DNA from: Candidatus Thorarchaeota archaeon
GTDB taxonomy: Archaea > Asgardarchaeota > Thorarchaeia > Thorarchaeales > Thorarchaeaceae
NCBI GenBank assembly: GCA_016840855.1
Contig: JAEORO010000173.1
Location: forward strand, 1 to 18,363
Reading direction: 5' to 3'
DNA: 18,363 bases
The notes beneath the pieces are model-generated. The model searched no databases. It saw only the letters and a program-made list of their open reading frames with translations, and was not told where the DNA came from. A program made the position numbers and the translations under genes. Of this stretch, positions 3 through 18,363 are shown one piece after another. Within the stretch, counting starts at the first letter, position 1. Every line of letters starts with the position of its first letter.

Positions 3-1232
3 GATGTTGAAACTGGTAATCCAATTGAAGGAAACATCACAGTGATGGGTGATTTAGAATTCTTCGTTTCTTATAGTCCAGAAAAACCCACCCAAGGTCA
101 AGAGTTAACTGTGGTAGTGAATATTGTTGATGGTTATGGCAATCCAGTTCCAGGTCTGGAGGTAACAATTCAGCTGATGGATCTTCCACCAATGATTGCA
201 CATCCCACAGATCAAATTGGTGAGTACTTCGTAGAAATTCCACACATCCCCACAACTATGGGATATGGAGATTTCACTCTCACAATTACTGCAGTAGGAG
301 AGTATGTTGGGGAATCGATTGATACATCAACAACAATACCAGTCGATCCTGCAACTCCAGATTTCACAATGTCAACTAACACACTATCAATTGGTGCAGG
401 ACTATCATTTGTGCTGAGCCTTATTGGTATGGTAATCTACTTTAGAATTGCATCTTCAATGAAAGTTGATGACAAGTCACTTGAAGGTCGTAAGAAATCC
501 ATCAAGAATATGGATAGACTATACCTTCTAATTGTACTGGCAAGTGCAGCTGGACTTGCAGCATCATATTCAACATATACTGCGGGAGACTATTCTCTTG
601 CTCTAATACTAACAGTTGCTCTTCTTGGTTGTTCTGTACTTCTGTATGGGCTATGGCTTTATCGAGATGCAACTGCGGCTGTGCTTGTTCGAGGTTCACT
701 CAGCAGGAAAAGAATGGTGCTTGGTCTTTGGCATCTGGTGTTCGTCCCAGTCGTAATATTCCTGATCCTTCTGTATGGTGTTGAGATAGATTGGTTCAAA
801 GCATACATCATCGATCAATCATTTACAATTGGCACAATCACTGTACCTACAATTATGACGACTATTTTTGCAGCCTACCTATCTTCAATACTGGTAGTTG
901 TAGTGAATCTCTATAGAGAGGTGAACAAAGGTCTCAAGAAGATTGTGAAAATGGAAGATGCTGGAACACCTGCAAGTGTTGTTGAAGATGAGAAAACATC
1001 TATGGTCAGTAGATTCAGCTCATCTGTTAGAATCAAGTTCTTGATGTTCTTAGTGGTTGTGGGCGCGACTACCGTTATGAGCATGGACTTCTTGGCCAGT
1101 TGGGAGCTTGGTATCATAGTACTCCTGCCAGTAGCATTTCTAGTTGTGATACCATTTATCTCATCCAAAATAATTCAAGTTTTCAGCAAAATGTCTAGAG
1201 GAAGAATACCTTCTGCACCTGCAGATAGCTAG
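3..1232 (+). CDS. 5'-truncated cell-surface/membrane protein: Ig-like beta-sandwich ectodomain(s) followed by about 7 transmembrane helices
   Basis: The frame is open from position 3 (DVETGNPIEGNITV...), so the GTG at 42 is probably internal. Two D-x(2,3)-GNP[IV]-x-G motifs of the kind seen in bacterial Ig-like repeats. Seven hydrophobic segments from about nt 384, separated by alternating basic and short/acidic loops. Stop TAG followed by TAA. Confidence 0.8.
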   Translation, partial: DVETGNPIEGNITVMGDLEFFVSYSPEKPTQGQELTVVVNIVDGYGNPVPGLEVTIQLMDLPPMIAHPTDQIGEYFVEIPHIPTTMGYGDFTLTITAVGEYVGESIDTSTTIPVDPATPDFTMSTNTLSIGAGLSFVLSLIGMVIYFRIASSMKVDDKSLEGRKKSIKNMDRLYLLIVLASAAGLAASYSTYTAGDYSLALILTVALLGCSVLLYGLWLYRDATAAVLVRGSLSRKRMVLGLWHLVFVPVVIFLILLYGVEIDWFKAYIIDQSFTIGTITVPTIMTTIFAAYLSSILVVVVNLYREVNKGLKKIVKMEDAGTPASVVEDEKTSMVSRFSSSVRIKFLMFLVVVGATTVMSMDFLASWELGIIVLLPVAFLVVIPFISSKIIQVFSKMSRGRIPSAPADS

Positions 1233-1296: not shown

Positions 1297-2838
1297 CTAC
1301 TCTTCATGCAAGAATTCATCTGCATCATCGTACTCATCAGAGTAGGCTTCTTCATCAGCATCTTCTTCAGGTACTTCTTCATCACTCACATATTCTTCCG
1401 TTTTGTAAGTTTCTTCGACTGATGATGGCTCCTCTGTGGTTTCTGGTTTCGTATCCTCTTCTAGAATTTCAGGCTCTGCTTTAGGAGCAGCTGCAGCTTC
1501 CTCCTGAGTAGGCAAAATCTTAAGACCTGCATCTTGCTCAGCTACAAATTTCGCAATCTGAGCTTTTCTTGTGAAGTAAAGAGCAACGATAACAGCTAGA
1601 GATAAGGCTGCACCTACAATGGTGAGAGTAGTCAACCAAGCACTTGAGCTATCACCCAAGAGCTGTTGCCAAGTGATAACTAAAAATGCAAGACCTGCAG
1701 TATTCATGACAAAAGATCTAAGAGGTGTCCCCACCTTAGTGATTTCTGTGACATTGGTGTCAACCATAGCAGCAGCAATCACACCAGCGTTGTATTGTGT
1801 AGACTTTGTCTTCTTTGCTAATGTTTTGACATCAGTCGATTTCTTCTTGCCCATCCACCGAAGGGCTGTAGGAACTTTTTCTGAAAGAAGATTTGCATAG
1901 GCAATTTTAGCGTCTTCATGAGACAAGTTACATTTCTTGCACATGTCTAGTTTAGTGTTCCATTTACGTTTGCATTGTGGACATCTATCTGCCTGCCATG
2001 CATCTGGTGCAACTTCTCGAAGTCGCTGACGCACAATGTATTCACTAACACCCGTATCAACGCGACCTTCTTTCTTTTCTTTCTTCATTGAATCGAGTAA
2101 CGAGAAAAGAAGTGGCAATGCACCAAGAACCGTCAGATTTGGAAGAGAACGTATCTCTGATGCTTTCTTATGAATTCCCCTTAGCTTGTAAGCAGTCTTG
2201 AGGCCCTCCCAAAGGCCATTGAGGCTACCTGCAACACCATAAACAGCACCAACTGTAGCAATACTTGCTGTTATACCTGTTACTGAAGTGATGATATCAA
2301 TTGGTGTCGATGGTAGAAGGAATGAAAATTGATGCTGTAATATATGCTGCGTTGAATCTCCTTCAATGTAATAACGAAAATCTACGGTTGCCTCATAGAC
2401 ACCCGTAGCGAGCTTGATTGGACCTAAAACTGACATCATTGCAGAAAAGTCCATGCCCGCACTGACTGGGGGGATAGTGACTGATGGATCGACTGTGAAC
2501 CATGTATTAAGGTGTGAATCAACTATTTGAATTGGAAACAACGGATATCCCTGATACCAAAATGTTATCGTTCCAGTAACGTTGAGAGTCTGAGAACCAC
2601 TTGCATTCAACTGAAGCGTGAGAATCATAGGTCCATCTAGATTTAATGGAAGAGGGGATTCAGGAGAATAATCCTTGAGGTTCATGCCATCCAATGCTGC
2701 ATAGACATATAATCTGCCATCATTAATGAAGTCATCAGGATATACTTGAGCATTGGCGGTCGTAACACCGCCAATCAATATTACTAGAAACAAAGTCATA
2801 AAGCCTATAATTAATAGACGTGATGGGGAGCGACGCAT
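1297..2838 (-). CDS. Hypothetical membrane protein (513 aa): signal/TM segment, beta-rich ectodomain, TM, CxxC-x10-CxxC Zn ribbon, possible winged HTH, 2 TMs, acidic tail
   Basis: ORF track. N-terminal MRR + hydrophobic stretch + ANA-Q cleavage-like site. CPQC-x10-CKKC at nt 1930-1983. E/D-rich C-terminal ~65 aa. Confidence 0.8.
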   Translation of the reverse strand: MRRSPSRLLIIGFMTLFLVILIGGVTTANAQVYPDDFINDGRLYVYAALDGMNLKDYSPESPLPLNLDGPMILTLQLNASGSQTLNVTGTITFWYQGYPLFPIQIVDSHLNTWFTVDPSVTIPPVSAGMDFSAMMSVLGPIKLATGVYEATVDFRYYIEGDSTQHILQHQFSFLLPSTPIDIITSVTGITASIATVGAVYGVAGSLNGLWEGLKTAYKLRGIHKKASEIRSLPNLTVLGALPLLFSLLDSMKKEKKEGRVDTGVSEYIVRQRLREVAPDAWQADRCPQCKRKWNTKLDMCKKCNLSHEDAKIAYANLLSEKVPTALRWMGKKKSTDVKTLAKKTKSTQYNAGVIAAAMVDTNVTEITKVGTPLRSFVMNTAGLAFLVITWQQLLGDSSSAWLTTLTIVGAALSLAVIVALYFTRKAQIAKFVAEQDAGLKILPTQEEAAAAPKAEPEILEEDTKPETTEEPSSVEETYKTEEYVSDEEVPEEDADEEAYSDEYDDADEFLHEE

Positions 2839-11277: not shown

Positions 11278-11826
11278 TTGGTCGAAGAAGGTCCCAGTTA
11301 TGTACTAAAAATGGTTGCACTTGGGGATGGGGCAGTAGGTAAAACAAGTTGCATTATGCGTTATACAGAGAATAGTTTTGGAGAGTCGTATAAAGCAACA
11401 ATTGGGACCAATATTGCTGTGAAAAATGTAGAGATTGAGCTTCACCCTGGTGAGTTATCGAGAGCCCAGATTGTTTTATGGGACCTTGCAGGACAACCAA
11501 CTTACAAGGACCTTCGTTCAAGATATATGGTTGGAGCTGCGATTGCATTTATTGTGTATGATGTTACAAGACCGCCAACATTTCTCAATGTGGCAGATTG
11601 GTATGATAATTTCATCACTGTATCTCCAGATGCAGTTGTGATTCTCGTGGCAAACAAAGTTGACAGAGAAGATCGATTAGTCCCTCAAGAGGCAGGCGAG
11701 ATGTTTAGTCGCTGGAGAAAAATTGACTATATTGAAACCTCTGCAAAAACTGGAGAGAATGTTGAAATGATGTTCACAAAATGTGTAGAAATAGCTATCC
11801 GTAATGAAGAAGATCGACTTGGCTAG
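11278..11826 (+). CDS. Rab-like small GTPase (Ras superfamily; eukaryotic signature protein)
   Basis: G1 GDGAVGKT, G2 ATIG, G3 WDLAGQ, G4 NKVD, G5 ETSAK. RabF-like YMVGA and IVYDVT. No C-terminal Cys prenylation motif. TTG start after GAGGAAGG. Confidence 0.93.
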   Translation: MVEEGPSYVLKMVALGDGAVGKTSCIMRYTENSFGESYKATIGTNIAVKNVEIELHPGELSRAQIVLWDLAGQPTYKDLRSRYMVGAAIAFIVYDVTRPPTFLNVADWYDNFITVSPDAVVILVANKVDREDRLVPQEAGEMFSRWRKIDYIETSAKTGENVEMMFTKCVEIAIRNEEDRLG

Positions 11827-11859: not shown

Positions 11860-13410
11860 TTAAGGCAGGAGTGTTGGCACTGCATCAAATGCATAGTCCA
11901 TAACTACATCGGGGAATATGAAAAGTGCAATAACCGCGATGACACAAATGATAACCGCTGCAAATGGAATAACTGGCAGTTTGATTCTCGAGTCATTACT
12001 TGGTTTCATCATGTAGGTGTACCTTAGTACTCGCAAATAATAACCCAATGAGAAGACTGAGTTCAGCAGACCGATGAGTGCAAGCCACCACATTCCAGCA
12101 AGCACAGCACTCCAAAAAAGAAAGAATTTAGACCAAAATCCGACTGTCAAAGGCATTCCAGCTAATGAGAGCATCAGGATGGCAAGTAGCCCCGCAGCCA
12201 ATGGTGCACGCTTACTAAGTCCTGCAAGGTCCTCATAGGTAATTCGCTTTGACAGCTTGATTGAAAGTGCCCAGATAAGAATGAAGGCTGAAGTCTTCAT
12301 CAGTGCGTGAGTAAAGGCATGAAATAATGCAGCACCTATTCCCAAAGTATATGCATCAGGGATTGCAGGATTGGCTGCAGCGATGCCTATGAAGAGATAG
12401 CCCATCATAGCTATACTACTGTACGCCAGCATCCGTATAATATCTCTCTGAGCGAGAGCTAATACATTTCCAATAACCATGGTTAGAATGGCAACTCCAA
12501 CAATGAGGAACGTCCATTGCGTTTGAGCAGCAACAAATCCGACTACAAGGATTCGCATCAATGCTCCAACACCTGTCTTCTTAGACCCGCCTGCAAGATA
12601 TGCTGTAACGCTTCCATCTGCACTGGCATATGCATCAGGTACCCATTGCCATCCAGGGAAGACTCCAACCTTGAAACCAAATGAAACTATGAATAATACT
12701 ACAGCCAATAAAATCGTATACGCAGCATTTGGAGTTGTGGAGAACATCACCCAGATGCTATCAACCGCAGCTGCTACCTCAATAAGATTGGTTGTCCCAG
12801 TTACTCCATATACTAGCGCGATTCCGAAGATCATTAACATCGTGGCAAGAAGTCCCATGACAAAGTACTTTGTAGCACCGTCAATTGCTTCTCTAGCAGG
12901 TCCTAATGCAACTAAAATATAGGTAGGAGTGGACATGAGCTCCCAAGCCAAGAACAAGCCGACTAAATCAGTTGCCATCACAACCCAAATCGCTCCTGCA
13001 AAGGAGATCAATAGCAGGAAATTGTACGGACCTTTATCACCACCATAGAGAGTGGAGGACATTAAGACGAGAAAAGCGACGATGAGTATGATGAAGATGA
13101 AGAAATCAGCCATGGGATCTCTCACGAATTGACCAAATGACACTCCACCTTCACCAATGAGAGAAATAATCACTGGATCAAGTGGATTAAGAATAACCAT
13201 TTCAATTGAAGCTAGTATCACACCAACAAAACTGATACCCAGCGGATTGAAACGCATACCAGCAACTAGTGATATGATTGCGAAAAGCACTAGTGTTAAT
13301 GCTGGAAGGGACATGATCCAGCCAGGGGGTGTGATGGAGAGTAGAAGGTCTCTTACAGGAGCCAAAACCCCTCTGAGAATATCAGCAATTTGGGTTAGTT
13401 GAAGTAACAT
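11860..13410 (-). CDS. nuoN: Complex I-like antiporter subunit N (NuoN/FpoN)
   Basis: FLAWELMS, ATKYFVMG, GFKVGVFP..QWVPDAY, GGSKK, MLAYSSI and PLTVGFWSKF (TM12 Lys). ATG 13410 overlaps the nuoM stop (TGATG); alternative start TTG 13413. Confidence 0.9.
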   Translation of the reverse strand: MLLQLTQIADILRGVLAPVRDLLLSITPPGWIMSLPALTLVLFAIISLVAGMRFNPLGISFVGVILASIEMVILNPLDPVIISLIGEGGVSFGQFVRDPMADFFIFIILIVAFLVLMSSTLYGGDKGPYNFLLLISFAGAIWVVMATDLVGLFLAWELMSTPTYILVALGPAREAIDGATKYFVMGLLATMLMIFGIALVYGVTGTTNLIEVAAAVDSIWVMFSTTPNAAYTILLAVVLFIVSFGFKVGVFPGWQWVPDAYASADGSVTAYLAGGSKKTGVGALMRILVVGFVAAQTQWTFLIVGVAILTMVIGNVLALAQRDIIRMLAYSSIAMMGYLFIGIAAANPAIPDAYTLGIGAALFHAFTHALMKTSAFILIWALSIKLSKRITYEDLAGLSKRAPLAAGLLAILMLSLAGMPLTVGFWSKFFLFWSAVLAGMWWLALIGLLNSVFSLGYYLRVLRYTYMMKPSNDSRIKLPVIPFAAVIICVIAVIALFIFPDVVMDYAFDAVPTLLP

Positions 13411-15026
13411 CAAGGTCCAACACCTCCAATGATAAATGTGACAACAGATTGAGTGAAGCTTAGAACCAAGTCGGGCCAGACGCCTAAGAGGATAACAGGG
13501 ATTAACATCAGAATTGGAGCAATAAGGTCACTCCAAGGTGCTTCTGTAACATCTTTTTCTGGGTCCGGATCACTGAAGACGATTCGGTTCAACATCCACA
13601 GGATATAGCCCACAGTGATGAATATTCCAAATGTAATAATGGCAGACCAGAGGTAAATAACCACGGAGCCAAAGATCACAAGAGCCTCTGCGATGAAACC
13701 ACTGAATCCTGGCAAACCAAAGGCTGCGAAAGATGCTAGAATCAAGATAGCTGAGAGCTTTGGTGCTTTTGTCATGAGACCCTTGATGTCAGGAATCTCA
13801 CGTGTTCCTGCAGAGTATTTGAGTTGTCCAGCCATAATAAACATGATAGAGATTATCGTTCCATGACTGAACATCATGAATATTGAGCCCTGAAGCGCCA
13901 GATTAGCAGCATTGATGTAACCAACGTTCTCTGCAACAAGAGGGTCGAGTCCAATTCCAAATGCAGCGACAGCTACACCAAGCAACACCCAAGACATGTG
14001 GTTGATAGAAGTGTACGCAACGAGACTCTTCAGATCGGTCTGTGCCATTGCTGTAAATGCAGCATAGATACAAGTGAAGATAGCCAATGCTGCGAATGGG
14101 ATACTCAATCTCGAAAATGCACTTGGTACTAACCAGAGCCCAAGACGGATGAATGTGTAACCACCCATCTTCAGCAAGATTCCTGCGAGTATAACTGAAC
14201 CTGGTGTCGGAGCCTTCACATGAGCCCAAGGAAGCCAGTTGTGAAGAGGCCAGACAGGTAGTTTTACACCCGCGCCCATGAAAATTGCTAAGGCAAAACC
14301 AATTTGGACCATTGGTGCTAAAGTCGGCAATATGGTTCTAAGGCCTTCAGGTCCACCAGGAATTTCGATGAGTGCGAAGGTATAGATTCCGGAAGCTTCT
14401 CCAGCAACAAGATACAGCACAAAGAATGCAACTAGCATTACAGCTGAACCAAGATGAGTATAAATGAAGAATTTAACAGCCGCATGTTCACAACCTTCTT
14501 CACCCCACCTCCCAATGATAAAGAACATTGGAATGAGTACTAGCTCCCAGAAGATAAAGAATCCAATCAGATCAAGTGACATGAATACTCCCATTAATCC
14601 AGTCTGAAGAAGTAAGAAAAGCGAGTAATAGAATCCTTCAGTGTCATGAATGTGGTTTGAGCTAATAGCAGCAATGAAGACCACAAGATTGGATAACAGA
14701 ATCATGATCGCAGATAGTCCATCAACTCCTAATATGAACTGGAAAACTGTTTCAGGTGTGCCAATTGGCACAGTTCCTAGCACAAAACTGTTGACAAATT
14801 GCATTCCAGCATCTGTAGCGGTAGAGATGATTTCACTCGTATCAACTGCAAGGACTAGCAGGAGAGATAATGCAAGTTCAAGTGTAGTCACTAAGAGTGT
14901 TATTACTCGAGCACCTTTCCCTGCAAAGTATGCAACTAGTGCAGCAACAAGGGGTAGGATTAGCATGAATCCTAATGGCCCAAAAGGCAACGAGTTTAGG
15001 ATGTTAAAGGCAAAACCAAATTGCAT
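13410..15026 (-). CDS. nuoM: Complex I-like antiporter subunit M (canonical NuoM/FpoM)
   Basis: GVDGLS, FFIFWELVLIPMFF, VKLPVWPLHNWLPWAHVKAP, LAGILLKMGGY, AYTSINHM, MFSHG and PGFSGFIAE (TM12 Glu). SD GGAGTGA. Confidence 0.92.
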   Translation of the reverse strand: MQFGFAFNILNSLPFGPLGFMLILPLVAALVAYFAGKGARVITLLVTTLELALSLLLVLAVDTSEIISTATDAGMQFVNSFVLGTVPIGTPETVFQFILGVDGLSAIMILLSNLVVFIAAISSNHIHDTEGFYYSLFLLLQTGLMGVFMSLDLIGFFIFWELVLIPMFFIIGRWGEEGCEHAAVKFFIYTHLGSAVMLVAFFVLYLVAGEASGIYTFALIEIPGGPEGLRTILPTLAPMVQIGFALAIFMGAGVKLPVWPLHNWLPWAHVKAPTPGSVILAGILLKMGGYTFIRLGLWLVPSAFSRLSIPFAALAIFTCIYAAFTAMAQTDLKSLVAYTSINHMSWVLLGVAVAAFGIGLDPLVAENVGYINAANLALQGSIFMMFSHGTIISIMFIMAGQLKYSAGTREIPDIKGLMTKAPKLSAILILASFAAFGLPGFSGFIAEALVIFGSVVIYLWSAIITFGIFITVGYILWMLNRIVFSDPDPEKDVTEAPWSDLIAPILMLIPVILLGVWPDLVLSFTQSVVTFIIGGVGP

Positions 15027-15027
15027 T

Positions 15028-17220
15028 TTATATCACTCCCAAGGTAATCAATGTGAGAATAACCAGTATTCCAATACCGAACATGACAACACTAACATAG
15101 TCGTTAATTCGTCCTGTCTGAGATCCAGCCAATCCAGCTTCAGAAGCTCTTACACTCTCAGTTGAGATCCCCTCAGCAAATCCATCCACGATATTGTCAT
15201 CAAACCAACGCACTTTGGTCGAGATTGAAATAGCGGCGTCAGCTGACTTGAAGTCGATGCCATCAATGATTTTGTCATCCACACTGACTCTCCAGTTCTG
15301 TGCAAATCCAAGAAACTTGTTTACAAGCCAGTAATATGATTCATTAATGTACCAACGATGTTTCAGGAAATTGTGAATACTGCGTCGAACTCCATTCTCT
15401 GGTATCATTGTGTTGGGTGTGTCAGCATTTTTGACATAGATCCAATATGCAGGGATTCCTCCAAGAAGGAGTGCACCAACAGTAATTGCGAAGGGGATGA
15501 TTCCTGGATAGGTTACCTTTACGATAATCATCTCAGTTAGTATCTCGATGAAGAGTTCGAGTGTGATTGGGCCTTCCATATAGAATATTGTTTGAATGAT
15601 TGGAAATATGAGGAATGCAAATATTGTGAAGATCGCTAGGATGTACAGTGGAACCATCATGGCCTTACCTGGGTCATGCGGTTCTTGATGATGACCCTCA
15701 TCATCATGATGTTCAGGCCGTTTTCCATGGAAGACCATTCCAACTAGGCGAATGCTGTAGAAAATGGTACAGGCTGCAGCGGCTACTGCGAGTATGAACA
15801 GGAATATGCCAAGCGGATTGACGGTTGCCAGTTCATATGCGTATTCAATAATGGAATCTTTGGACCAAAAGCCCGACATGGGAGGTATTCCAGCCAATGC
15901 CAAGACACCGATGAGGATGACTCTATAGGTCCAAGGCATTGCATCTTTCAGTCCACCCATTTTTGACATGTATTTTGTATGAACCGCATGAATCACTCCT
16001 CCAGCCGCCAAGAACAGCAAGGCCTTGAATGCACCATGAGATATGATATGCATCACGCTGCTCAGATGCGCCGCTTGGTAATGACCTTCTACAGCGAATA
16101 CACCAGCAGTTCCCAGAGCAAGTATCATGTATCCTAATTGACTCAACGTGGAGAATGCAAGAACCTGCTTCAGTTCATTTGAAACCATGCCCATAGTAGC
16201 TGTCATGAAAGCAGTAACAGCACCTACTATAGCCACAATAAAGAAGAAAGATAGGACGGTCTCGATGCCAAGAGCCTGCAATGGAACGAAACCCGCAACA
16301 TGTTCCTCTCCTCCACCTGTAGCAGTCGCTGCTGCAATTGTTAGGATAAAACGTGCAGTTATGTAAACACCAGCCTTTACCATGGTTGCTGCGTGAATCA
16401 ATGCAGATACCGCGGTCGGACCAGCCATAGCTTCAGGCAGCCATACCTGGAGAGGTGCCTGTCCGGATTTCCCTATTGCTCCAGCAAAGATAAGGAGAAG
16501 AGCAGGAACTAGAACTCCCCAGCTAGCCATTGAACCCCACCAATCATTCACATTCGTCGCAAGATCTGTGAAGAGGAAAGAACCAGCAAATCCAAAGAGA
16601 AGAAGGATACCTCCAAGCATAAGAGCGTCACCAACTCGGGTGACAATGAATGCCTTTGTTCCGCAATGGGTATTGTACTCGCCCTCAGTCTTGAATTGAA
16701 GTAGAGGATTTTTCTGCTCATATCCAAGAGGATCTTCCTCTGGAGGGTTTCGTTTATCGTTCCAGAAGCCAATCAACCCGTAGCTGCAGAAGCCCATGAT
16801 CTCCCATCCGATAAAGGCAATCAGGAGATTGTTTGAAAGGACAAGTGTTAACATTCCGCCTCCAAAAGCCAGCATGAGAAAGAAGAACCGACTACGGTCT
16901 CCCTCGTGAGCCATGTACTCAGTACTGTACACATAGATCAGGAAACAGAGTGTGCTTGCTAAGACAGCCATGATAATGGATAGAGGGTCAAGAAGGACAC
17001 TGAACTCAAGATTTAGTGCGGGGATCCATGTCCATGTGGTTGTCTGAATAGAGTGACCAATCTCCGGAAGAAGTGACCAACAGAGGATCATGGTGATGCC
17101 CATGAAGATTGCAGGAGTCCAGTCCCTGAGTTTTTCATTGAAGCGCCCTACAAGAGGTACAAGCAGTGAACCACCCAGAGGAATCACGAGGATTAGATAG
17201 TAAGGTAGACCAAATAGCAT
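15028..17220 (-). CDS. nuoL: Complex I-like antiporter subunit L (NuoL/FpoL) with lengthened lateral helix, 730 aa
   Basis: DPLS, YSTEYM, GWEIMG, TRVGD, GKSGQAPLQVWLPEAMAGPT, LIHAATMVKAG, STLSQLG, HGAFKALLFL, GFWSKD, and C-terminal RWY...QTG + TM. Start moved from 17298 to ATG 17220 (or GTG 17223) because SD GAGGTGA overlaps the upstream stop. Confidence 0.92.
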   Translation of the reverse strand: MLFGLPYYLILVIPLGGSLLVPLVGRFNEKLRDWTPAIFMGITMILCWSLLPEIGHSIQTTTWTWIPALNLEFSVLLDPLSIIMAVLASTLCFLIYVYSTEYMAHEGDRSRFFFLMLAFGGGMLTLVLSNNLLIAFIGWEIMGFCSYGLIGFWNDKRNPPEEDPLGYEQKNPLLQFKTEGEYNTHCGTKAFIVTRVGDALMLGGILLLFGFAGSFLFTDLATNVNDWWGSMASWGVLVPALLLIFAGAIGKSGQAPLQVWLPEAMAGPTAVSALIHAATMVKAGVYITARFILTIAAATATGGGEEHVAGFVPLQALGIETVLSFFFIVAIVGAVTAFMTATMGMVSNELKQVLAFSTLSQLGYMILALGTAGVFAVEGHYQAAHLSSVMHIISHGAFKALLFLAAGGVIHAVHTKYMSKMGGLKDAMPWTYRVILIGVLALAGIPPMSGFWSKDSIIEYAYELATVNPLGIFLFILAVAAAACTIFYSIRLVGMVFHGKRPEHHDDEGHHQEPHDPGKAMMVPLYILAIFTIFAFLIFPIIQTIFYMEGPITLELFIEILTEMIIVKVTYPGIIPFAITVGALLLGGIPAYWIYVKNADTPNTMIPENGVRRSIHNFLKHRWYINESYYWLVNKFLGFAQNWRVSVDDKIIDGIDFKSADAAISISTKVRWFDDNIVDGFAEGISTESVRASEAGLAGSQTGRINDYVSVVMFGIGILVILTLITLGVI
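15181..15279 (-). repeat. Internal duplication in nuoL with a 78-nt (26-codon) period
   Basis: DDKIIDG (15259-15279) and DDNIVDG (15181-15201) are exactly 78 nt apart and identical at 17 of 21 nt. Confidence 0.75.
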
Positions 17221-17230
17221 CACAATCACC

Positions 17231-18361
17231 TCATGGAACGATAATTCCTTGTACAGCCGGGACAATGACATCCAGTGCCAGTCCTGGGAATATTCCAAAG
17301 ATTACAATTAGAATTCCAAGTATGATCATTGGAATGGTCATAGAATTGGAGCTCTCTTTCACATCCTCCAGCTCATCAGGATGAGGTCCGAGAAAGACCC
17401 TCCAGAAGAAGCGCAGCATATAGCCTGCGCTAAGAATTGAGCTTGTTACTGCAAGGATAGTTAGGATGAGGAAAGGTAGATTTACAACTGCACCTCCAAC
17501 AACAGCCCTCTCGAAGCCTCCAAAGAACATCATCCACTCACTGGCGAAACCAGAGAGTGGGGGACTTCCAGCAATGCTCATCATACCTATAGCTGCTGCG
17601 AATGCAGTGATAGGCATCTTGTTCGAGAGACCACCCATCTTAGTGATATCACGAAGCCCTGTCTGATGAATCACAGCACCTGCAGTCATGAACAGAAGAC
17701 CCTTAGAGAAGGCATGGTTGATTAGATGGAACATACCTCCTGCTGCCCCCATAGGCGAGTATACGCCAAGGGCAAAGAGAACATAGCCCATTTGTGATAC
17801 TGATGAGTATGCAAGTAGTCTCTTAATGTCAATCTGCGCAAGCGCCATAAAGCCACCATAGAACATTGTGATTACGCCCAAGGCGGCAACAAAGAATGAC
17901 AGTCCAATAGCAGCATCAGACAGTGTGATTAATCCGAACCGCATTAACGCGTATGCACCAGTTTCAATCATAGCACCAGATAGCAGAACTGAGATTGGTG
18001 TTGGGGCTTCTGCATGCACTGGTGGAAGCCACCAATGAATTGGGAACACCGCCATCTTAACAAGGAATCCTGCAGCGAGGAGAATGAAGACAACCTTCAA
18101 CACAGTTCCAATAGTTATTGCTAAACCTGGTAATGATGCATACAAGTTGAGAGAATTGATGCCTGCTTGTAGTAATGACAACTCAAAGGAACCTGCGAGT
18201 GAATACAGGATACCAAACCCGACTAGAATACACACTGCACCTGATTGAGTGTATAACCAGAACTTCAAAGCAGTCCGCTTACGTGTTTCAGGCAATCCCC
18301 AGAACAGAATCAGAAAATAGCTTGGGACCAGCATTATCTCCCATGCAATGAAGAACTCAAT
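17231..18361 (-). CDS. 5'-truncated additional antiporter-like subunit (NuoM/MrpD/HyfB-like; M')
   Basis: The frame is open to the window edge (IEFFIAWEIMLVPSY...). Motifs ALKFWLYT, GFLVKMAVFPIHWWLPPVHAEAPTPIS, LLAYSSVSQMG, NHAFSKGLLF and PPLSGFASEW. Stop TGA lies 10 nt before the nuoL ATG. Confidence 0.88.
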   Translation of the reverse strand: MEFFIAWEIMLVPSYFLILFWGLPETRKRTALKFWLYTQSGAVCILVGFGILYSLAGSFELSLLQAGINSLNLYASLPGLAITIGTVLKVVFILLAAGFLVKMAVFPIHWWLPPVHAEAPTPISVLLSGAMIETGAYALMRFGLITLSDAAIGLSFFVAALGVITMFYGGFMALAQIDIKRLLAYSSVSQMGYVLFALGVYSPMGAAGGMFHLINHAFSKGLLFMTAGAVIHQTGLRDITKMGGLSNKMPITAFAAAIGMMSIAGSPPLSGFASEWMMFFGGFERAVVGGAVVNLPFLILTILAVTSSILSAGYMLRFFWRVFLGPHPDELEDVKESSNSMTIPMIILGILIVIFGIFPGLALDVIVPAVQGIIVP

Positions 18362-18363
18362 CA

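Follow-up and report, generated by a model that had tools for sequence, protein, structure and literature searches.

The archaeal DNA considered here, a stretch of 18,363 nucleotides (nt) from a Candidatus Thorarchaeota archaeon (hereafter the window; contig JAEORO010000173.1, here C123), carries four successive antiporter-like genes, M'-nuoL-nuoM-nuoN, which close a conserved operon. We consider it probable, at roughly 0.7, that this operon encodes a head-less four-pump complex I/Fpo-like redox-driven ion pump of Thorarchaeota, head-less meaning that NuoE, NuoF and NuoG are missing. As predicted from its genes, the complex is of the known '2M' design (Chadwick, Hemp, Fischer & Orphan, 2018, ISME J 12:2668), here in a new lineage. 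The reading is carried by the completed operon, by its conservation, by a lengthened lateral helix (HL) in NuoL and by the separate ancestry of the two M-type subunits.

Four Antiporter-Like Genes in One Operon

The window is the entire contig C123 of a 3.36-Mb genome in 259 contigs. PF00361 was found in four successive minus-strand open reading frames (ORFs) arranged head to tail (Table 1). Between M' and nuoL, a TGA stop is followed by 10 nt (ggtgattgtg) and an ATG; between nuoL and nuoM, one nucleotide separates TAA from ATG; and nuoM and nuoN overlap as TGATG. The four tightly coupled antiporter-family genes described in an initial annotation of the window, made from the letters alone, are thereby confirmed. 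The M' fragment is an ORF of 376 amino acids (aa) at 17231-18361, open at the contig end, and scores 282.9 bits on the NCBIfam model NDH_I_M against a cut-off of 263.8. NuoL would comprise 756 aa if read from the alternative TTG at 17298. NuoN reaches 287.9 bits on NDH_I_N (NCBIfam), below the cut-off of 332.6, with NuoN families still being its top matches.

Taken alone, the window leaves M' cut by its end, and the closest non-Asgard relative of M' that was found (45% identity, Bathyarchaeia, locus L050) adjoins a hydrogenase maturation protease. Both observations would suit M' being a pseudogene, an artefact of assembly or the closing gene of a separate Mrp/Mbh/Hyf module; such an origin is nevertheless very improbable. 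The last 127 nt of a second contig, C207, are identical to the first 127 nt of the reverse-complemented window, and over this join M' forms one unbroken frame of 512 aa, which begins directly after the nuoI stop and has its first 136 codons on C207 (L001:10565-11095, the 127-nt overlap included). A near-identical public protein of 512 aa (P0001), encoded on an 88.9-kb contig of another assembly, differs from M' in 3 N-terminal residues. M' abuts nuoI on one side and nuoL on the other, an arrangement that recurs in related loci (see below), and no Mrp small-subunit genes (MrpB, C, E, F, G) were found in the operon, every ORF from nuoA to nuoN belonging to a Nuo family. The exact contig overlap and the intact frame within a nuo operon therefore exclude the separate module and the pseudogene, two cases which the initial annotation had named as fatal to its reading, and its placement of the four genes in a complex I-like operon stands, with M' following nuoI and no small Mrp-type genes between.

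The complete operon reads GlcD-like/NuoB fusion, a 191-aa membrane protein, and nuoA-J-K-C-D-H-I-M'-L-M-N, with junctions of 0-10 nt or overlapping genes. The 11-subunit core (NuoA, B, C, D, H, I, J, K, L, M, N) is thus encoded together, as assigned by Pfam and NCBIfam over L001 and the window. Elsewhere in the genome PF00361 occurs on C207 only, which also carries the only NuoH. The 191-aa protein is kept at the same place in Thorarchaeota loci with 32-80% identity, matches no Pfam or NCBIfam family and has Atlas matches all below 0.9; it may be an accessory subunit.

Table 1. Location of the operon genes and related features. Positions without a prefix refer to the window; those with a prefix refer to the locus named.
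Feature	Location	Strand	Remarks
M' (archaeal M-type antiporter-like subunit)	17231..18363	-	C-terminal 376 codons and stop; PF00361 3e-67
nuoL	15028..17220	-	730 aa from ATG; NDH_I_L 449 bits; PF00662 and PF00361
HL of NuoL, residues 623-696, then transmembrane helix 16, residues 705-727	15133..15354	-	AlphaFold2 model
Two tandem 26-residue HL units, residues 647-672 and 673-698	15127..15282	-	each opens with [VF]-D-D-x-I-[IV]-D-G
nuoM, E. coli-like M-type, between L and N	13410..15026	-	538 aa; NDH_I_M 401.7 bits
nuoN, final operon gene	11860..13410	-	516 aa from the ATG in TGATG; 517 aa from TTG 13413
GlcD/LctD-like FAD-binding dehydrogenase fused to NuoB	L001:2623-4563 (C207)	+	646 aa; N-terminal FAD domain; sole NuoB available to the complex
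191-aa predicted membrane protein, acidic tail	L001:4563-5138	+	between fusion gene and nuoA
HdrD/GlcF-like Fer4+2xCCG gene of this genome	L069 (contig C228) 5541-6767	-	86.5% identical orthologue, beside a cut PKD-domain gene
NuoL genes with their own HL duplication	L057:10770-12899, L073:11725-13803, L074:11721-13784, L077:8566-10743		one Asgard, three Thermoproteota

Conservation in Thorarchaeota and Other Asgard Archaea

A scan of species-representative genomes with M' yielded 51 loci, of which 49 come from metagenome-assembled genomes of Thorarchaeota/'Promethearchaeota' and two are distant, namely the Bathyarchaeia locus L050 and an Elusimicrobia locus with 33% identity. All 49 Thorarchaeota-type loci are colinear with the operon over the stretch that they hold: M'-L is present in 44, I-M'-L in 40, all four antiporter-like genes in 33, a full-length GlcD-like/NuoB fusion in 25, and all 13 genes in 23. 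Of 121 genomes sampled from the phylum, 17 belong to the same family, and 12 of these 17 have an M' at 67% identity or more. Five same-family genomes of two other genera gave no M' with the M' query, and loci from two of these (L067, L068) are three-pump clusters instead; the former has both NiFe motifs, and the latter no NuoD homologue in the stretch fetched. A search of 50%-representatives with M' returned matches at 31-46% identity, together with one fragment at 72%.

The order I-M'-L-M-N, combined with a NuoD devoid of NiFe motifs, is also found in L055, L056 and L059, which come from three genomes of other Asgard families. In L056 and L059 NuoB is free and unfused, which argues that the four-pump arm is older and wider in distribution than the flavoenzyme fusion. 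The initial annotation had further proposed an Asgard host, in agreement with the relatives being named Candidatus Thorarchaeota, and had suggested a look at the upstream genes and at Asgard gene order; both checks are in its favor, with nuoA-I preceding M', NuoD retaining 1 of 4 NiFe cysteines, and the gene order recurring as described above.

A Lateral Helix Lengthened by One Unit

The length of the HL was taken as the number of residues from the conserved RWY motif of NuoL to the QTG motif before transmembrane helix (TM) 16. It amounts to 78 residues here, and in the 35 Thorarchaeota NuoL with exact motifs it is either 77 (26 loci) or 78 (9 loci); 38 C-termini were readable, and the 3 without an exact QTG were left unmeasured. 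A looser helix-end pattern had given 71 residues for 7 loci, a value that was discarded, since under the strict QTG definition none has 71 and all 35 have 77 or 78. The four-pump loci of other Asgard archaea (L055, L056, L059) measure 76-77 residues. By comparison, the HL has 51-53 residues in altogether 14 three-pump or unduplicated archaeal NuoL, comprising nine three-pump Asgard loci (51-52), two Nitrososphaeria-like operons (L072 and L081, 53) and three further archaeal proteins (51-52), and it has 52 residues in NuoL of E. coli.

Aligned with NuoL of E. coli and of three-pump loci, the extra length corresponds to one 26-residue unit, or about 39 Å at 1.5 Å per residue, and the helix contains two such units in tandem (Table 1). 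In shuffling tests, 23 of 2000 shuffles matched the score of one unit against the other here, and 4 of 2000 did so in L045. The putative duplication is an old one that has been eroded in part. An AlphaFold2 model of NuoL, built with 36 NuoL sequences, has a predicted local distance difference test score (pLDDT) of 76.4 and a predicted template modeling score (pTM) of 0.78, and shows a single unbroken helix of 74 residues (623-696). The longer helix that the initial annotation had associated with a fourth pump is hence found both in the motif distance and in the model.

Separate Ancestry of the Two M-Type Subunits

Both M' and nuoM exceed the NDH_I_M cut-off, carry a Glu at TM12 and fall into the M-type part of the tree. 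M' is, however, only 27% identical to the NuoM of its own operon, compared with 30% to NuoL and 25% to NuoN. Its identity to the M-position subunit of L058, an Asgard three-pump cluster with no NuoD homologue in the stretch fetched, is 43%. Phylogenies were quick, unrooted IQ-TREE runs (LG+G4) of 69 and then 85 rows, the latter after six rows of L062 and L066 had been dropped, with support from the SH-like approximate likelihood ratio test (SH-aLRT) only. The M' proteins of four-pump operons form one clade (SH-aLRT 94, then 98), which is nested in an archaeal M-type clade (96, then 92). This wider clade also includes the M of Nitrososphaeria-like K-M-L-N operons, the M-position subunits of hydrogenase-type loci of Asgard archaea and Thermoproteota, and the Bathyarchaeia gene of L050. 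The nuoM of the operon, in contrast, clades with NuoM of E. coli (SH-aLRT 100 in both trees), and all 28 solved chains that match it at E<=1e-30 are NuoM, ND4 or NdhD, while the top solved matches of M' are MbsH' (6u8y_X, E = 7.7e-57) and MrpA. A tree uniting M' and NuoM of four-pump operons was rejected, with a log-likelihood lower by 80.8 and p = 0.003 in the approximately unbiased (AU) test, for a grouping chosen after the tree had been seen. The two predicted M subunits are of separate ancestry, and M' is no copy of the adjoining nuoM.

L072 and L081, from the Thermoproteota genomes G125 and G168, have single-M operons that run A-B-C-D-H-I-J-K-M-L-N, with an M of the same archaeal M-type clade as M' placed before L, and this Nitrososphaeria-like K-M-L-N order seems to be the gene-order template that received the second M in Asgard archaea. 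M' would accordingly be the native archaeal M of the lineage, and the E. coli-like M, placed between nuoL and nuoN, the likelier addition, a direction that lies beyond proof from unrooted trees. The initial annotation had called the gene between L and N a canonical nuoM; its four genes M'-L-M-N stand, and by tree and gene order this canonical nuoM looks like the newcomer.

The channel residues of M' were compared at the positions of E144, K234, K265 and E407 of E. coli NuoM, which we take to be the channel sites and which are indeed Glu or Lys in the sequence fetched. M' keeps the Glu of TM5 (E144), the Lys of TM7 (K238) and the Glu of TM12 (E411), and it looks functional as a candidate pump subunit.

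Proposed Arrangement of the Membrane Arm

In the arrangement that we favor, the membrane arm would combine four antiporter-like subunits, two of them M-type, in one complex, with L in the distal position and separated from N by M' and M. The HL, longer by one unit of about 26 residues, would then span one extra subunit on its way to the TM16 anchor, and one more ion would be moved per two electrons, that is, five instead of four.

A different placement has been considered, in which all four subunits are present, M' lies distal to NuoL or elsewhere, and the long helix contacts something else, for example the 191-aa protein. M' precedes L in the operon, weakly matches the NuoL/MrpA-type domain PF00662 at its N-terminus (23 bits, short of the cut-off), and has its best solved relatives in MbsH' and MrpA, all of which would fit a distal position. 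Gene order, however, says little on position, since the Nitrososphaeria-like three-pump operons also put M before L; M' has the Glu of M-type subunits at TM12 and sits in the M-type clade rather than in the L clade; and the added length equals the 26-residue HL insertion of the Nitrospira 2M NuoL, which has been postulated to accommodate a fourth pumping subunit (PMC9040806). We regard this placement as quite unlikely.

Several observations weigh against a simple four-pump interpretation. The duplication signal in the HL is weak in L013, where 1166 of 2000 shuffles reach the score, and the confidence of the modeled helix is low (pLDDT 45-55), as might be expected of a strap helix that is modeled without its partners. 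At TM8, M' has a Glu (E269) in place of the Lys, a replacement common to 7 of 7 M' of four-pump operons checked and to the M-position subunits of Asgard hydrogenase-type complexes. Membership of all four proteins in one complex is deduced from their genes; a look for RNA data sets holding the 6.5-kb stretch listed none. NuoL of L057, L073, L074 and L077 carries its own tandem duplication of 26-27 HL residues. An M'-type gene follows NuoL directly in L057, L073 and L074 and not directly in L077, the other antiporter-like genes of these cases are dispersed, and the nearest NuoL relatives carry a single unit. On a tree of the NuoL core, built without the helix (24 rows; the Elusimicrobia row, in which the helix is not measurable, was left out), the long-helix state needs four changes, namely once in the four-pump Asgard clade, in L057, in L077, and in L073/L074. 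Moreover, one genome with a duplicated HL (G264; completeness not given) has only three PF00361 genes. Taken together, the independent duplications and the three PF00361 genes of G264 indicate that the long helix is recurrent in archaea and may at times go without a fourth pump; the number of pumps cannot be read strictly from helix length.

Another possibility is that only three antiporter-like subunits are assembled at a time, with M' and NuoM as alternative M-position subunits of two isoforms. Cyanobacterial NDH-1, with its alternative NdhD and NdhF subunits, offers a parallel. The different lineages of the two M proteins and their low mutual identity would suit isoforms, as would G264, in which a long helix is no proof of four pumps. 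Yet in 33 of 33 loci that extend far enough to include the four genes, both M genes are present, in fixed order and tightly coupled within one operon. Moreover, all four-gene operons that were measured have the long helix, and the 14 three-gene or unduplicated relatives have the short one. An alternation of two isoforms is therefore judged improbable.

Type of Complex and Electron Partners

In NuoD of the operon the NiFe motifs are degenerate, RxCGxC and DPCxxC both being lost, and they are likewise lost in all four-pump operons checked. Both full motifs are kept in HyfG of E. coli and in L052, L061, L062, L063 and L067 (one Elusimicrobia locus and four Asgard three-pump loci). The NuoB part of the fusion protein shows the CC...C...CP cysteines of cluster N2, as read by eye from the translation, and reaches about 150 bits to complex I/NDH-1 chains vs about 100 bits to MbsJ/MbhJ. 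No NuoE, F, G module was found in the operon, and PF01512 (NuoF) was not found in the genome (92% complete). The predicted complex is a head-less complex I/Fpo-like enzyme, neither a hydrogenase nor a classical NADH dehydrogenase.

Electrons would be delivered by ferredoxin at NuoI, or by way of the fused flavoenzyme. Most Thorarchaeota loci contain a 408-aa Fer4+2xCCG (HdrD/GlcF-like) gene, divergent and upstream of the fusion gene. In the present genome the orthologue lies on contig C228 (Table 1), for which no end overlap joining it to C207 was found. In three close relatives the HdrD-like gene shares a contig with the operon and lies 0.2, 4.9 and 9.6 kb upstream. In the present genome, the gene and the operon appear to have been separated by an insertion of PKD-domain genes. 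The neighbors of the gene on C228 (187-5474) are two PNPOx-like genes, a UbiA prenyltransferase, a polyprenyl synthetase and a geranylgeranyl-reductase-like gene; a link of these neighbors with quinones was considered and set aside, as the UbiA, polyprenyl synthetase and geranylgeranyl-reductase-like genes could equally serve archaeal lipids.

On the acceptor side, two further observations count against the favored pump. The MqnA/D and NrfD families were not found and no electron acceptor is evident, and the quinone-binding Tyr of E. coli NuoCD aligns with a Met in NuoD. The significance of the missing Tyr is weakened by the Nitrososphaeria-like NuoD, which, inspected by eye, is also without Tyr at this position. 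In terms of midpoint potentials, the energy released between ferredoxin and a menaquinone-like acceptor could cover five ions; lactate-to-ferredoxin transfer would need inward ion flow. The physiology proposed in the initial annotation, a large redox span or reverse electron transport, is a candidate role for the predicted complex.

A more specific alternative is that the complex works as a 2-hydroxyacid (e.g., D-lactate):ferredoxin oxidoreductase driven by the proton motive force. Electrons would enter at the GlcD-like flavin with the HdrD-like protein as partner and would be pushed uphill via N2 and NuoI to ferredoxin, driven by the inflow of five ions through the four antiporter-like subunits and the E-channel. 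With pyruvate/lactate at about -190 mV and ferredoxin at about -450 mV, the step is about 260-310 mV uphill, and it would be the fourth pump that makes it feasible. A second and independent part of this reading is that the HL unit of about 26 residues would behave as a reusable ruler, which archaea duplicated or lost at least four times among the 24 NuoL compared. The reading appears unlikely.

Relation to Known Complexes

The likeness of the Thorarchaeota complex to the '2M' complex I of Chadwick et al. (2018), which is also cited in a further paper (PMC7419157), consists in the four antiporter-like subunits with two of M-type and in a NuoL lateral helix that is longer by about 26 residues. 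It differs in that the M subunits are of different ancestry instead of a local duplicate, in the fusion of Thorarchaeota NuoB to a flavoenzyme, and in gene order, which is L-M1-M2-N in '2M' of Chloroflexi (PMC7117926) vs M'-L-M-N here. Contrary to the initial annotation, which regarded '2M' complexes as bacterial, a four-pump complex without NuoEFG has been reported in heterotrophic marine Thaumarchaeota (PMC7300363), and for Bathyarchaeia there is mention of an fpoM copy that has been inserted (PMC8407382).

The operon also resembles the archaeal head-less Fpo-like/Nuo complexes of 11 subunits, for which ferredoxin oxidation has been proposed, with HdrD as a partner in some lineages (PMC8407382, PMC9723677). 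Shared features are the lack of NuoEFG/FpoF, a complex I-type NuoD without NiFe site and, in most Thorarchaeota loci, an HdrD-like Fer4+CCG gene beside the operon; the fourth antiporter-like subunit, the longer HL and the NuoB/GlcD-LctD-like FAD fusion set the Thorarchaeota complex apart. The group 4 [NiFe] hydrogenase complexes of Asgard archaea (Appler et al., bioRxiv 10.1101/2024.07.04.601786) belong to the same phylum and have a related NuoL and M-type subunits of the same archaeal clade as M'. In contrast to the operon described here, they possess both NiFe motifs, three antiporter-like genes and an HL of 51-52 residues. In that study nine Asgard nuo clusters were modeled, and the Heimdall-type arms were shorter than in complex I; section 7 of its text makes no mention of a four-subunit arm, and its figures or supplements may show a Thorarchaeota cluster. 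MbsH' of Pyrococcus furiosus MBS (6u8y chain X), the best solved match of M', has 618 aa vs 512 aa in M', and the rest of the Thorarchaeota operon is Nuo-type. No description of a four-pump complex in Thorarchaeota or other Asgard archaea was found in the literature searched.

Relatives of complex I set how much energy is kept per electron pair, and a fourth pump changes this ratio or allows harder reverse reactions. The four-gene arrangement is fixed across Thorarchaeota and three further Asgard lineages, and the '2M' design is thus more than a curiosity of bacteria; two M subunits that differ in ancestry can make it up, and the matching helix extension arose repeatedly. Asgard energy metabolism bears on models of eukaryote origin, and the genes, which are what has been established here, point to a putative membrane pump of high stoichiometry, linked to ferredoxin or flavin, in archaea that are usually called fermentative.

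Neighboring Genes in the Window

A Ras-family small GTPase gene (PF00071, 7e-42; 11278-11826, plus strand) is convergent to nuoN. Such GTPases are typical 'eukaryotic signature' genes of Asgard archaea, and another one lies near the L-M' pair of L057. At the other end of the window, the ORFs at 3-1232 (plus strand; 409 aa, open at the contig start) and 1297-2838 (minus strand; 513 aa) have no Pfam or NCBIfam match. The stretch between 2911 and 11182 is occupied by ordinary genes, which encode a response regulator, a class I/II aminotransferase, an SSB-like OB-fold protein, a 2-phosphoglycerate-kinase-like protein, the alpha subunit of an ADP-forming acetyl-CoA synthetase, a TrpB-like PLP enzyme and a PAS-GAF-PAS histidine kinase.

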